Assembly (NCBI GenBank): GCA_964016885.1
Contig: OZ024743.1
Location: forward strand, 224,626,001 to 224,690,000
Length of the DNA: 64,000 nucleotides
Direction of reading: 5' to 3'
Source: Eledone cirrhosa
Lineage: Eukaryota
Part shown: positions 12,760-42,170 of the stretch, piece by piece
How positions within the stretch are numbered: position 1 is the stretch's first letter
Layout of the letters: each line of letters starts with the position of its first letter
Made by a program: the position numbers and the translations under genes
The notes under the pieces: model-generated
What the model saw: only the letters and a program-made list of their open reading frames with translations
Told to the model about the DNA's origin: nothing
Database searches by the model: none

Positions 12760-13453
12760 TATATGTAGGTGTGCGTGTGCGCTTGTTATATACGTATTTA
12801 TTTACTTATATACGTTTATATAATTATTTATTTATTTGTACACAAGCATACACACACACACATATTTATCTGTGCGTGGTTTTGTATACCCATGGTAAGG
12901 TTTTGCGTATGCTTGTGTATGTACGTATCTGTTTGCGTGTATGTATTTATTTGTTTCTATTACTTCTGTATTGTATTTATTTACTTTGTTCTTAACTCTG
13001 TAGCGGAGATTCATTTGGTCTCCTAGTTAGAATTTTAGTCTACGATTTCTGCTATACCATTTACGTGGTTTTGTCTTTGCGTACTATTGTTCTCCACGGT
13101 CCACATATGACTTATTATCTTCGTTTTTTCGTTCATTGCCAGAGAACGTCTCTATGCACCGCCTAAGAGAACATTAGTCTACGACCTCTTTTATACCATA
13201 AACGTGGTTTTGTCTTTTCGCGTAATTGTTTTTCACCGCTCCTATTAATGACGTATTATTCGTTTTTTCCCGTTCTTTGCCAGCGAACGTTACCACGAAC
13301 CAAAGTATCGTCTTCCTGTCTTCCTCCGGTTGCAACGTTTTTTGAAATATCCAGTTCTGCGTTTACAGATTGACTTTGTTAGTTTCAGAAGATCCCGTTA
13401 AGGGTGAAAGCAGCGATTCTTTGCTTAAACTTTAATCTGTTATTTTAATAAAT
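12760..13453 (+). mobile_element. PLE 3' UTR/pLTR fragment with variant HHR
   Basis: A TG/TA-rich UTR, an internal duplicated segment (about 13036-13160 and 13176-13295) and an HHR-like motif at 13381-13431. Its end matches 19588-19645 in reverse complement. Confidence 0.6.
13381..13431 (+). ncRNA. Type I hammerhead ribozyme, variant core (CAGAAGA)
   Basis: agttt-CAGAAGA-tccc gtta agggt-GAAA-gca...tgc-TT-aaact; stems I, II and III pair. Confidence 0.5.
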
Positions 13454-14304
13454 ATATATATACATACATATATATATATGTATATATATACATATATATA
13501 TGTATATATATACATATATATATATATGTATATATATACATATATATATGTATATATATACATATATATATGTATATATATATACATATATATATGTATA
13601 TATATACATATATATATGTATATATATATATATATATATAGAGAGAGAGAGAGAGATAGATATGTATATATAAATATATATATATATATATATATATATA
13701 GATAGATAGATATGTATATATATATATAGAGAGAGAGAGAGATAGATAGATATGTATATATATATATATATATATATATATATATATAGAGAGAGAGAGA
13801 GAGAGAGATAGATAGATATAGATATGTATATATATATATAGATATAGATATAGATATGTATATATATATATATATATATATATAGATATGTATATATATA
13901 TATATATATATATATATATATAGATATGTATATATATATATATATATATATATATAGATATGTATATATATATATATATATATATATATATATATATATA
14001 TATAGAGAGAGAGAGAGAGAGAGAGAGAGATAGATATAGATATGTATATATATATATAGATAGATAGATATAGATATGTATATATATATATATAGATAGA
14101 TAGATATAGATATGTATATATATATATATGTATATATAGATATGTATATATATATATAGAGATATATGTATATATATATATATATGTATATATATATATA
14201 TGTATATATATATATGTATATATATATATATGTATATATATATATATATGTATATATATATATATAGAGATATGTATATATATATATATATATATATATA
14301 TATA

Positions 14305-15205
14305 TAATATAAGATCAAAAGATGGTTAAAGGAGTTCCATGTATTTTATTATGCGCATTTCAGAAACAAACATCATCATGCAATAATATTTGTGTTTTCA
14401 TCAGATAAAACAGGAGAACATGATATGAAGGCTAAAAAACACCTGTGGATAGTGCAGCTTTAAATCAACATATGAAAAGTGGTTTTAGATTGATGTGTGA
14501 TATTGGGAAAAATATTTTATTTAGAGAGGGGGGGGGGAGGATGAAAAAGGGGAGGAGATGAGAGGGAGAGATGGGTGATAGAGAGAAAGAGATAGTTTTT
14601 ATAACTGAGAGGAGATATATTGTTTTACATAGAGAGGTTGAAAACCGTTGGAAGATAATGTATAAATTAAAAAAATTTGAAAATTAACGAAGGGAGGATA
14701 TGTGCGAGGAAAAAATATTTTATTTAGGGAGGGGGGTGGTGGAAAGAATGAAAAAAGGGGGAGGAGATAAGAGTGAAGGTGGAGAGGGATAGATGGGTGA
14801 TAGAGAGAAAGAGATAGTTTTTATAACTGAGAAAAAGATATATTGTTTTACATAGAGAGGTTGAGAACCGTTGGAAGATAATGCATAAATTAAAGGAATT
14901 TGAAAATTAACGAAGGGAATTTATGTATGAAGATAGAGAGAAAAAATAATAATTGTGGATGAATATTCTAACGTTAAAAAAAGTGTATGTTGATAAGTAT
15001 TGTGGCAATTTCAAAATTAACGAAGAGAAAAATTATTAATGATGATGTTTGTTTTTGAAATGCGCATAATAAAATACATGGAACTCCTTTAACCATCTTT
15101 TGATCTTATATTATGTATACTCCAGTCCTACAAACTGTAGAGTGCTTCTTATCCGATATCTGCATTGCTTTATTGTACTACAATAAAACTCACCTCCTAC
15201 ATTAT
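14305..15205. mobile_element. PLE pLTR island with inverted arms
   Basis: 14305-14380 is the reverse complement of 15040-15114. HHR on the minus strand, an internal tandem duplication of about 200 bp, (TA)n flanks. Confidence 0.75.
14344..14410 (-). ncRNA. Type I hammerhead ribozyme
   Basis: Reverse complement reads ttttat-CTGATGA-aaacacaaatatt...gatgtttgtttct-GAAA-tgcgca-TA-ataaaa, with a palindromic stem III. Confidence 0.75.
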
Positions 15206-16793
15206 ATATATATATATATAATATATATATATATATATATATATATATATATATATATATATATATATATATATATATATATATATATATAACGGCGATG
15301 AATTAGTTTTGCAAGCTTTTTTTACCCTCCCCAAGTATAACAATATATATATATAGATATGTATATATATATATGTATATATATATGTATTTATATATAT
15401 ATATATATATATATGTATATATATATATATATATATATATATATATATATATATATATATATATATGTATATATATATATATATATATATATATATATAT
15501 ATATGTTTATATATATGTATATATATATATATATATATATATATATGTATATATATATATATGTATATATATATTTATATATATATATGTATATATGTAT
15601 ATATATATTTATATATATATATATAGATATGTATATATATATATATATATATATATATATATATATATATATATAGAGAGAGAGAGAGAGAGAGAGATGT
15701 ATATATATATATATATATAGAGATATATATATATATAGATATATATAGATATGTATATATATATATATATATAGATATGTATATATATATATATATATAG
15801 ATATGTATATATATATATATATAGATATATATATAGATATGTATATATATATAGATATGTATATATATATATATAGATATATATATATAGATATGTATAT
15901 ATATATATATATATATATATATATATATATAGATATGTATATATATATATATATATATATAGATATGTATATATATATATATATATAGATATGTATATAT
16001 ATATATATATATATATATATATATATATGCATGCCAATTCTAACACATATATATCCTAGAAACGATCGTTAAATAATGAACTTTTTTTGTTTAATATAAG
16101 GAACTGTTTCATTGTTTTATTCATTATTTTTTTAATATTTTATCTTGACTCTGTATTCCGTTTATCTTTCACCGAAAGTGATTTTTCATTGCATCTCTTC
16201 TTTCCATGATATCCGGATTACATTGAGTTCTTCATACGGATTGGACACTACCGTAAACTCTTGGTAGATTTATCTACATATATATATATATATATATATA
16301 GATATGTATATATATATATATATATATAGATATGTATATATATATATATATATAGATATGTATATATATATATATATATATAGATATGTATATATATATA
16401 TATATATAGATAATTTAATATATCAACTAACATAGGCGCACAGATGTACGTCCATGCCAGCAAATACACAGGTTATGTCATAGTACCTAGGTGGTTCAAT
16501 GCAGGAGGGTGCAGAACAATAATATAAAAGACGTAAAATAAGAAAATATTTTTTTATAGATATGTATATATATATATATATATATAGATATGTATATATA
16601 TATATATATATATAGATATGTATATATATATATATATAGATATGTATATATATATATATAGATATGTATATATATATATATATATAGATATGTATATATA
16701 TATAAATATGTATATATATAGATATATATATATATATATATAGATATGTATGTATATATATATATATATATATATATATATATATAGATATAG

Positions 16794-40600: not shown

Positions 40601-41165
40601 AGGAAGGGCTGTGGGCCGGGTGGGTAGGTGAAGGAGTCGAAAAGGCGCAGGGCGTGGTTGGTGTCAGAGATGTGGGTGGGGAGGGTGGTGACAAGGGGGG
40701 CGAGGATGTAGTCGAGAAAGGCGGAGATGAGTTCGGTGGGGCAGTTGCAAGCGGAGACGATGGGGCGCCGGGGTTGTCGGGTTTGTGGAGTTTGGGGAGG
40801 AAGTAGATGGTGGGGGTGCGGGGGGTGCGGACGATGAGGTGGGAAGCGGTGGGGGGAGGAGGGAGGAGGCGATAAGGTCTTGGATGGTGGAGGAGACTTG
40901 TTGTTGGTAGAGGGGGGTGGGATCGGAGGGTAGAGGGCGGTAGAAGAGGGGGTTACAGAGCTGCCTGAGGGCTTCGGCCGTGTAGAGGTCCGCGCGCCAC
41001 ACCACCACGGCGCCTGCCTTGTCCGCCGGTTTGATGACGTTGTCATCTCGGCTACGGAGGGAGCGGAGAGCGAGGAGTTCGCCCCATGAGATATTGTACC
41101 GTTTGGAACGGTGGCGGAAGTCGAAACGATTTACTGCGCTACGGCTGGCATCGACGAAGACGTCT
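37645..41165 (-). mobile_element. Neptune-type PLE copy 2 (inverted relative to copy 1)
   Basis: ORF 39520-41046 has the same RT motifs and is collinear with 20161-23590 along its whole length. HHR core at about 37738-37768. (TA)n flanks. Confidence 0.92.
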
Positions 41166-41750
41166 ATATATATATATATATATATATATATATATATATA
41201 TATATATATATATCATGCTTTGACGCATAGAGTTACGGCCCTTGCCATTCTGAGTTCAAATCCCGCCGAGGTTAACTTTGCCTTTCGTCCTTACGGGGTC
41301 GATAAAATAAAGTACCAGTAATGTACTGGGTGATTGTTAGCCTTGTGCCAAAAGTAGAAACAATTATATATATATATTCGAATTTTGTTTATCGTGAACT
41401 CGTGCGCCGATTTTTCGATACTCGATTATTCTACTATATATATATATATATATATATATATATATATATATATATATATATATATATATATATATATATA
41501 TATATATATATAAGGACTAGCGTCCGAAACGTTAAGACTCTCTTCCTGCTATTTCAAGCGTTAAACTACTAATATATTCCTTCCATATACTGCAACCAAT
41601 TGTTGTTATTTCTGTTTACCTTTCACACACACACACACACACACACACACACACACACACACACACACACACACACACACACACACACACACACACATAT
41701 ATATATATATATATATATATATATATATATATATATATATATATATATAT

Positions 41751-42170
41751 AACGATATATTAACAAATGGAAACTATATTTATAAAACCATATTTATTTC
41801 ATTATACATATTTCAAGGACACCAAGTTAAATTATGGTGTGCTTTCATCAGATAAAATATAATATAGATCAGTTTTATCAATAAATATTGACATGCCCTT
41901 AAAGAATGCGACCATTTCTGTTGGAAGCTCCCGGATAGTGGGGTTATAAATTTATTTATACTATTATGCAAATTAGTGTCGGATATTTTTAAATCACAGT
42001 AGATTTAAAATAAGCCGTTGGGGTATGGAGAGAGGGAAATAGAATAAATATGGTTTTATAAATATAGTTTCCATTTGTTAATATATCGTATTTTTACTCC
42101 AATAATTTGTTGAGTGCTTTATATCAGTTATAAAAATATTTGCTTGTTGTATCCCAACAATTTAAATAGA
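41751..42170. mobile_element. PLE pLTR island with inverted arms
   Basis: 41752-41797 is the reverse complement of about 42043-42089. HHR at 41797-41857 (-). Confidence 0.7.
41797..41857 (-). ncRNA. Type I hammerhead ribozyme
   Basis: Reverse complement reads ttttat-CTGATGA-aagcacacca...tggtgtcctt-GAAA-tatgta-TA-atgaaa. Confidence 0.7.

Follow-up and report, generated by a model that had tools for sequence, protein, structure and literature searches.

Insertions assigned to Hydra-type Penelope-like elements in the genome of Eledone cirrhosa end at two places, each beside a copy of the same small bulged hairpin: short (tail-less) arms terminate just before hairpin 1 and tailed (long) arms just before hairpin 2. 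Judged from the sequence, both ends are likely placed by one and the same type of signal, and we consider it probable that the hairpins are RNA signals positioning internal starts of reverse transcription. The window analysed is a stretch of 64,000 nucleotides from contig OZ024743.1 (forward-strand positions 224,626,001 to 224,690,000), in which all coordinates below are counted. Element copies were collected from the genome by sequence-pattern search.

Hydra-type elements in the window

The inverted-arm islands are assigned to Hydra-type Penelope-like elements by the motifs of their coding sequence. A single ORF with a reverse transcriptase (RT) and, at its C terminus, a GIY-YIG endonuclease (EN) was linked to families A, C, E, F and H. 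A Pfam search of the ORFs gave no match at E 0.01; read by eye in the alignment, they carry RWR/RWI (RWK-type) and SDKT (DKT replacing DKG) motifs. Families A, C and E, with a full C terminus, have a CxCX5C linker, a C-terminal CxxC and CxH and no CCHH, and the linker was also seen in family F; families C, F and H include near-intact copies of the ORF. The C-terminal position of the EN sets the elements apart from Naiad and Chlamys, whose EN is N-terminal. The first-pass annotation had called the island families unrelated; they form one clade, with 40-53% protein identity. Each family has 9,000-45,000 exact anchor matches in this genome, and the insertion target is (TA)n. In full-length copies the hairpin occurs twice between the putative hammerhead and the ATG, hairpin 2 lying shortly upstream of the ATG. 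Hammerhead cores were seen in families A, C, D and E and were degenerate in F and H; Rfam gave no match at gathering score in the 64-kb window, and among the 150 of 236 matches listed from an E-value scan of the window, nearly all were microsatellite noise. The elements share their ORF motifs, their targeting of (TA)n, an inverted arm that is 5'-truncated and a tail on one side with the Hydra-clade, C-terminal EN+ elements described in the accessible text of PMC8557442. That paper also describes a hammerhead in the pseudo-LTR, of which the cores seen here are putative counterparts. The tails given there are 30-40 bp long and those in the present elements about 60-135 nt.

All nine hairpins reported by the first-pass annotation lie where it placed them, and its claim that the short arm stops 4-6 nt before the hairpin was borne out at five of them. 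In family A, hairpin 1 (15119..15143, plus strand; upper stem CAG/CTG, TA bulge) follows the equivalent of the short-arm end (15114) by 4 nt, and the tail runs to about 15202; the short, tail-less arm of the island (14308..14391, minus strand) has its terminus in (TA)n. The distance is also 4 nt in family B (hairpin 1 at 17045..17084, plus strand, with a TC bulge and a long loop; end equivalent 17040). In family C, a hammerhead core with stem III up to the predicted cleavage site (31699..31737, plus strand), laid out as in File S2 of PMC8557442 as far as that file is accessible, precedes hairpin 1 (31765..31783, plus strand; G-U pair in the upper stem, TT bulge), 5 nt from the end equivalent at 31759, with a tail to about 31826. 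The short-ended arm of this island occupies 24313..25666 (minus strand), and an ORF remnant with thumb, CxCX5C linker and GIY-YIG (29178..30050, minus strand) lies on the strand of that arm. Family D has its hammerhead core (36476..36530, plus strand) inside a palindrome that is nearly perfect, with an arm of 152 nt and a spacer of 4 nt, and hairpin 1 at 36591..36616 (plus strand), 5 nt from the end equivalent at 36585. In family E, hairpin 1 (42096..42115, plus strand) lies 6 nt from the end equivalent at 42089; the hammerhead core of the short arm starts at 41851 (minus strand), and the 3' part of an E-type Hydra ORF (RT thumb, linker, GIY-YIG) is found at 442..1640 (minus strand).

Family F carries hairpin 1 with a G-C closing pair and a TC bulge (19540..19584, minus strand). 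Its sister copy (12760..13453, plus strand) does stop short of the hairpin position, as had been proposed, and the earlier figure of about 4 nt becomes an interval: 2 nt by exact match and 6 nt by the leftmost TA-microhomology reading. A further family has hairpin 1 at 18400..18421 (minus strand), its sisters ending 7-9 nt upstream in (TA)n; a read-through copy (L084) has hairpin 2 and a Hydra-type ORF. The remaining two reported hairpins are hairpin 1 of a C-related subfamily (37011..37030, minus strand) and of a family C mini-palindrome spanning 43686-43845 (43722..43740, minus strand). Absent from the earlier list were a variant hairpin with a broken closing pair in a D/E-type tailed arm (36756..36776, minus strand); a long-loop hairpin 1 with upper stem TGTA/TACA (16148..16228, plus strand), whose sisters terminate in (TA)n at 1-11 nt upstream and whose family shows hairpin 2 and an ORF in copy L054; and a hairpin found by covariance model (25916..25956, minus strand), with a sister copy (L129) that terminates in (TA)n at 3-6 nt upstream.

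A doubled hairpin, one copy beside each insertion end

The motif consists of an N-CUC/GAG-N' stem, a 2-nt 3' bulge whose first base is U, and a freely covarying upper stem. The ACTC...GAGT hairpin of the first-pass annotation is thus real, but its stem is bulged and of 7+ bp, not 4 bp, and it is doubled, not single. Among 30 hairpins picked by CTC..GAG alone, the register with the 2-nt bulge was paired at 25/30, 25/30 and 24/28. Watson-Crick pairs numbered 67/90, compared with a permuted mean of 29 and maximum of 48 in 20,000 permutations, and 37 two-sided changes were observed against 10.9 +/- 3.0, demonstrating that the covariation suspected earlier is significant. RNAalifold on a MAFFT alignment recovered only the lower stem, because the variable loops misalign. 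Family H variants at a minimum of 5% of depth left both stems intact, apart from a single C-to-T change, after which the sense strand still has a G-U pair. Folding energies were not unusual (z -0.26 to -2.21). The sense-strand assignment of the hairpin is tentative, since either strand folds and G-U pairs outnumber A-C pairs by just 7 to 5; the strand assignment leans on this ratio, on the one family H variant and on geometry.

The motif was sought in 135 inverted islands that had been collected without regard to it; they make up 34 clusters over 1.6 Mb, and part of the set was picked around five families. The 4-bp motif stood 3' of the junction in 81/135 islands, far more often than in shuffled tails (mean 0.5/34 clusters). 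The full bulged descriptor was found in 70/135 islands and 14/34 clusters; per random draw it was found in 10.4/34, compared with 0.014 in shuffles (maximum 1 in 500). These results reject chance as the source of the motif at junctions; a microsatellite artefact and a splice site were also rejected. The strict hairpin was absent from 20 of the 34 clusters, about nine of which show a near form by eye, so that the earlier statement that each inverted-arm island has it was too strong. In the reverse test, TA-ended sisters lay 0-12 nt upstream of 35/83 descriptor matches, compared with 5/225 for seven control stems.

End positions were obtained by comparing arms of the same insertion, as end histograms against a single reference were blurred by subfamily differences; junctions are given as intervals, x-drop offsets overshooting owing to microhomology. 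A distance of 6 nt to the stem fitted 57/67 scored short ends (113 pairs, 46 dropped), another five of the 67 sitting 12 nt from the stem, and 65/85 scored long ends (172 pairs, 87 dropped). The same two TA-joined end peaks were present in a public contig set (75 and 313 contigs). Hairpin 2 was found 3-7 nt past the long end; read-through copies showed it in families A, F, E (12/12 loci, 11 places) and H (12/12 loci) and in four minor families, the searches for E and H demanding only the 5' strand of the hairpin. In family C, hairpin 2 is a reduced 4-bp variant that still marks ends 4-9 nt away. One family has a degenerate hairpin only, and one sequence (L270) has one clear hairpin. A pile-up of family H tails starting near hairpin 1 proved to be mostly a divergent subfamily.

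Inverted insertions combine one end of each kind: among 138 pairs, 107 were short+long, one short+short and three long+long (p about 5e-27 for the short+long excess against 50:50). In 53/76 short islands the stopping points of the two arms are no more than 10 nt apart. A non-coding family of about 600 nt, whose tail end lies at 41377..41432 (plus strand), has both hairpins; it ends before the upstream hairpin at two places, compared with 577 read-through copies, and is inverted in 1/32 loci. This shows that the upstream hairpin by itself is insufficient for a short end; the first candidate for what activates that site is the hammerhead.

Proposed mechanism and alternatives

The signal would have to act on the template, because the copied part does not include it and the (TA)n target lacks it. 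The earlier suggestion of a cis signal positioning the RT is retained as the best reading, but the signal would not be confined to a second priming event, as another copy lies just past the long end. In the proposed model, the element protein would bind the C-U-C/G-A-G stem and the U bulge, and the endonuclease would cut both (TA)n strands, as the enzyme of Poseidon_Ac (PAc) does on AT-rich DNA in vitro. Each DNA 3' end would form a weak duplex with the 3-8 AU-rich nt immediately 5' of a hairpin, and synthesis would begin about 6 nt from the stem. One DNA end would be directed to hairpin 1 and the other to hairpin 2, probably by two RT subunits on one RNA, a step modelled on the dimer predicted for PAc. 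The downstream subunit would displace the first cDNA, and the two cDNAs would join head to head to give the inverted repeat, the tail being the stretch between the two sites with hairpin 1 included. Hairpin structure, doubling, position and the pairing of one end per site are the observed part of this model. Counting against it are the scarcity of short ends in the non-coding family, the reduced hairpin 2 of family C, the family with a degenerate hairpin, the single clear hairpin of L270, the five short ends at 12 nt, the ordinary folding energies and the lack of CUC in the printed PAc stretch. If the likely reading holds, the one-sided Penelope tail is explained by hairpins that set the start of reverse transcription. 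The RTs of Penelope-like elements are the sister group of telomerase, and a more tentative extension is that a telomerase-related RT dimer uses the tandem hairpins as a ruler with two sites and, from one RNA, primes the broken target at either end, the portable signal letting non-coding RNAs insert in trans.

Four alternatives were weighed. The motif may instead act in DNA, the GIY-YIG endonuclease recognising it in DNA of the element itself or in a cDNA intermediate and cutting about 6 nt upstream, so that the ends would reflect homing or resolution. The tail has been ascribed to EN-mediated resolution (PMC8557442, accessible text), the D. virilis EN reportedly depended on the tail to cleave (PMC11167929, accessible text), and DNA hairpins also covary. 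TA-preceded tails beginning at the short site do exist, about 253 per strand among 42,151 family H hairpins (near 1.2%). However, later splitting of tailed copies predicts one orphan tail per short end, and two real orphan tails were found against 268 short arms, by which splitting is rejected as the main route. The DNA of long-ended copies is without hairpin 2, and the family H variants spare the stems except for the change that keeps G-U pairing on the sense strand. Taken together, action in DNA appears unlikely.

Slightly less likely still is that RNA is cut about 6 nt upstream of the hairpin under its guidance, ordinary priming then proceeding from the new RNA 3' end. A constant distance would suit a nuclease ruler equally well, and RNA-seq read ends coincide with the PAc start sites, although PAc initiated internally on longer RNAs in vitro (both in the accessible part of PMC11167929). 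Moreover, a cut at site 1 removes the template of the tail. This would call for two RNAs, and if these were independent the 107:1:3 pairing would go unexplained.

Fold-back copying, in which one arm would serve as template for the other and the hairpin would halt this second synthesis, is improbable. Self-priming has been proposed for palindromic junctions (PMC3846280), and the spacer is below 25 nt in 59/107 short+long pairs. But the short-ended arm exceeds the tailed arm in length about as often as the reverse (13 vs 11 and, in a second count, 13 vs 10), it can bear the ORF, and directly repeated full-length copies also terminate at the short site; arm lengths and these copies contradict fold-back as the main route, which would also leave hairpin 2 unexplained. 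That the hairpins have a role in translation, in the export of RNA or in packaging, with ends adjoining them through AU-rich pairing with (TA)n primers, would suit the place of hairpin 2 before the ATG and the non-coding family's retention of an upstream hairpin at which it rarely ends, but is the least credible of the four, as AU-rich stretches abound in the leaders and ends nonetheless concentrate at one distance from the hairpin, even with single-base microhomology.

Known systems and other hosts

LINE and partner-SINE 3' stem-loops, hepadnaviral epsilon and telomerase template-boundary elements are small protein-bound RNA structures that select a template or determine the point at which an RT begins or ceases to copy. 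They are single, whereas here a tandem pair lies 3' of two predicted internal starts, and the likeness drawn is one of role. In L1 twin priming, as in the proposed model, one RNA is primed by both strands of the target and an inversion results; the L1 segments are free of overlap and their second site varies, whereas in the present elements each of the two sites is fixed and the arms are duplicates of one sequence.

The closest precedent is PAc, for which internal RT initiation at two sites bounding the tail, in a stem-loop, is already published (PMC11167929, accessible text). As in PAc, the tail would be the stretch between two internal starts, both DNA strands would be cut and extended, a start would lie in a stem-loop, and a dimer is predicted. 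Unlike the present elements, PAc belongs to another clade and its AC-rich stem-loop lies inside the ORF; the accessible part of PMC11167929 reports no conserved motif or repeated hairpin, and the PAc stretch printed in its Fig. S1 contains no CUC by eye. No description of the hairpin was found in the literature searched, and the main text of PMC8557442, as accessible, mentions neither hairpin nor stem-loop.

How the inverted pseudo-LTR and one-sided tail of Penelope-like elements originate is a question decades old. A conserved structure of 20 nt from which the two ends of an insertion can be predicted, in several families and phyla, makes it reducible to simple mutagenesis, and offers a means to set the boundaries of very abundant repeats and to tie non-coding partners to the mobilising clade. 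The dimer ruler, if true, would be the first rule at the level of sequence for how Penelope elements get their tail and inverted pseudo-LTR, and would supply a short tag by which target-primed insertion with internal starts can be recognised.

The hairpin is also present in other hosts. Six 9-mers of its 3' strand, searched in the consensi, hit eight places (matches across line breaks may be missed), four in Hydra leaders and four in apparent coding stretches of Naiad or Chlamys, which lack the hairpin. Consensi published for coral and sea cucumber contain it, and by eye the six novel consensi in the accessible part of PMC8557442 comprise three with the strict hairpin (one of them twice), one with a variant, one with a partial form and one that ends before the hairpin position. 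It was likewise found in 5/5 metagenome relatives having a 5' leader.

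A bulged hairpin with covarying stems

All nine hairpins that the first-pass annotation had located in the window were present. The 4-bp stem it described for them does exist, but it is merely the base of a longer, bulged stem. In this full form, hereafter the strict form, a closing pair (G-C or A-U, once U-A) is followed by an invariant C-U-C/G-A-G, above which lie a two-base 3′ bulge with U as its first base and an upper stem that is free in sequence; the loop spans 2 to about 100 nt, and RCU often follows the stem. The pairing register was assessed in 30 hairpins picked by CTC and the next GAG alone, with three duplicates dropped and two mis-parsed hairpins kept. 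The results showed that upper-stem positions 1–3 pair in 25/30, 25/30 and 24/28 hairpins in the two-base-bulge register compared to 4–22 of 30 in other registers, and that the closing pair is kept in 26/30 (12 expected). The covariation suggested earlier was borne out, with 67 of 90 pairs being Watson–Crick where permutations averaged 29 (and never exceeded 48 in 20,000). In a hand-picked set of 26 hairpins with short loops, pairing held in 95.8% of cells, two-sided changes numbered 37 versus 10.9 ± 3.0, and slid controls reached at most 0.245 versus 0.437 for the true register. A covariance model built from these 26 recovered all nine sites and two further ones in the window, at 16148–16228 and 25916–25956, each with TA-ended sister copies immediately upstream. 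Folding energies by themselves were unremarkable, and no Rfam family matches the hairpin.

The hairpin motif at the ends of Penelope-like elements is real. Inverted islands, each made of two head-to-head arms, were gathered without reference to the motif (135 islands, 34 clusters) from 1.6 Mb of fetched sequence, of which 600 kb was unselected and the remainder lay around anchors of five families. The strict form occurred in 70 of the 135 islands and 14 of the 34 clusters, the per-cluster figure being the fair measure because island counts are enriched for the five anchor families. With one random member per cluster, 10.4 strict matches were obtained where dinucleotide shuffling yielded 0.014 (never more than 1 over 500 rounds), and the simple 4-bp form, found in 81 islands, was far from equally common in shuffled tails (mean 0.5 clusters). 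The strict form was absent from 20 of the 34 clusters, of which about nine carry a near form by eye and the others comprise nested insertions or elements of other kinds. In the converse test (664 kb of unselected DNA plus the window), 35 of 83 strict matches had sisters ending in (TA)n 0–12 nt upstream, compared to 5 of 225 matches to seven control stems. Genome-wide, one form of the motif was counted 5,099 times versus 82 for the reversed pattern.

Two hairpins and two element ends

The window belongs to a 3.0-Gb genome and is rich in (TA)n. As claimed, short arms end 4–6 nt before the hairpin, the last base shared with the long arm lying 4, 4, 5, 5 and 6 nt from the stem in five inverted islands. 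A sister copy of family F, said to end about 4 nt short, does stop before the stem, but at 2 nt by exact match. Exact anchor matches numbered 32,521 (family C), 9,212 (A), 38,011 (F) and 44,753 (E) genome-wide, and each family has two discrete 3′ ends joined to (TA)n, one right before the hairpin and the other 60–135 nt beyond. In the inverted island at 44741–44995 the upper stem is good and the lower 3′ strand degenerate; the ends still lie about 5 nt before the hairpin.

A second, downstream hairpin was found just past the long end in read-through copies of A, F and four minor families. A pattern search with no requirement beyond its 5′ strand following the end of the tail found 68 instances in E and 357 in H, and the bulge, 3′ strand and subsequent ORF start were present at 12/12 fetched loci for each; in family C it is a reduced 4-bp variant. 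When breakpoint distances were scored, 6 nt, allowing TA microhomology, fitted 57 of 67 short and 65 of 85 long ends, unscorable ends (46/113 short, 87/172 long) having been dropped. When contigs from a public run, which may derive from the assembly's own sample, were placed on family H, loose ends joined to TA appeared 5 nt before the first stem (75 contigs) and 3 nt before the second (313 contigs).

Host element and candidate mechanism

Longer insertions tie families A, C, E, F and H to single ORFs encoding a reverse transcriptase (RT) as well as a GIY-YIG domain at the C terminus, the proteins being 40–53% identical to that of family C; the hairpins sit downstream of the predicted hammerhead and ahead of the ATG. 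The ORFs carry RWR, SDKT, CxCX5C, CxxC and CxH, given as hallmarks of the Hydra clade in section 11 of PMC8557442, and on these motifs the families are assigned to this clade of Penelope-like elements. Full-length family H units also form head-to-tail arrays that repeat roughly every 3,540 nt (contig C1 of the same genome, 91476611–91487267 and 437200343–437210965). An endonuclease remnant (C-terminal) of a further Hydra-type family is nested in the family C island (27015–27330, minus strand). Two GC-rich Penelope-like copies of another type (20167–23581, plus; 37654–41157, minus), 86% identical, have a DKA motif, a CxxC zinc finger and a hammerhead core at 23473; the covariance model detected no hairpin at their ends.

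According to the accessible text of PMC11167929, in a Poseidon element the two strands of the target are each cut and extended, reverse transcription begins at two internal sites in an AC-rich stem-loop, the tail corresponds to the sequence separating these sites, and the protein is predicted to be a dimer. In the Hydra clade, the element protein probably binds each hairpin, which would set the RT start about 6 nt upstream, leaving space for a short primer–template duplex, and each of the two DNA ends would use one site. The signal must be on the template, because it lies outside the copied part and is missing from the target; it likely acts as RNA (G-U 7 versus A-C 5). Cutting at the DNA level is an unlikely source of the ends, and cutting of the RNA is slightly less plausible again. 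Tails beginning at the short site after (TA)n are rare, with 2 real cases versus 268 short arms in the sample and a genome-wide share of about 1.2% among hairpins of family H.

Among 138 outward-facing inverted pairs, 107 combined a short with a long end; the remainder were 6 short plus read-through, 1 short plus short (between different subfamilies), 3 long plus long (one visibly mis-classed) and 21 other. In 53 of 76 short islands the arms halt at most 10 nt apart, which is what would be expected of two copies made from one RNA up to a common stop. A fold-back origin of one arm is very improbable, its simple form being ruled out because either arm can be longer (13 versus 11 in one tally, 13 versus 10 in another); that the hairpins serve another role altogether is the least credible reading. 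Arms of short palindromes share a family-specific inner stop, within 4 nt in 43/60 (C), 28/36 (H) and 16/20 (A) arms (for example, window 31690–31700 and fetched locus L258, 1385–1395); in C and H a pyrimidine tract and AG precede it, so that it resembles a 3′ splice site next to the hammerhead (compare the accessible part of PMC4209133).

A probable non-coding partner, other hosts and neighbouring features

The motif search revealed a non-coding tandem family of 581–612 nt with two hairpins 106 nt apart (loci L294, L298 and L304; window 41377–41432), showing no long ORF and no clear hammerhead. Its 3′ ends fall immediately before the downstream hairpin in 29/37 matches, its 5′ ends are joined straight to (TA)n, and it is inverted at 1 of 32 loci. 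These features suggest that the hairpins are enough for mobilisation in trans, and the family is probably a non-autonomous partner of elements of the Hydra type. The upstream hairpin alone is insufficient for a short end, because this family has it, yet ends there at only 2 places genome-wide, compared to 577 read-through copies.

Among six novel Hydra consensi in the accessible part of PMC8557442 File S7, inspected by eye, the strict hairpin was seen in two elements from sea cucumbers and one from a coral, one of them having it twice, in a consensus that begins 2 nt ahead of the first copy; of the remaining three, a copepod element has a variant, an octopus element a partial form, and one ends before the hairpin. 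A metagenome scan gave eight relatives (29–45% identity), and the strict hairpin was present in 5/5 of those with a 5′ leader, one having two and one a variant second copy. Relative L270 has a single clear hairpin per unit (185–204 and 2671–2690), which makes it a suitable natural test of single-site insertion. Earlier work had already described the Hydra clade, the tail, the inverted arrangement and a pair of internal starts; no description of the hairpin motif was found in the literature searched, on which subscription journals, Repbase notes and supplement figures may bear, and it is unmentioned in the accessible text of PMC4209133, PMC3846280 and PMC13282606.

A dispersed SINE-like repeat of about 190 nt occurs in the window at 1969–2159, 9235–9417, 42390–42790, 44089–44280 and 52499–52680, once as an inverted pair, and a broken RTE-like LINE with AP endonuclease and RT frames lies at 55255–57747 (minus strand). 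The islands seem intronic, with host-gene exons at 4961–5944 and 58328–62224 (plus strand), which we take to be from a formin-like gene (a proline-rich FH1 and the start of FH2). The N gap at 17663–17862 is flanked by repeated sequence (16820–17131/17864–17890 and 17630–17662/18330–18362), probably an assembly overlap.
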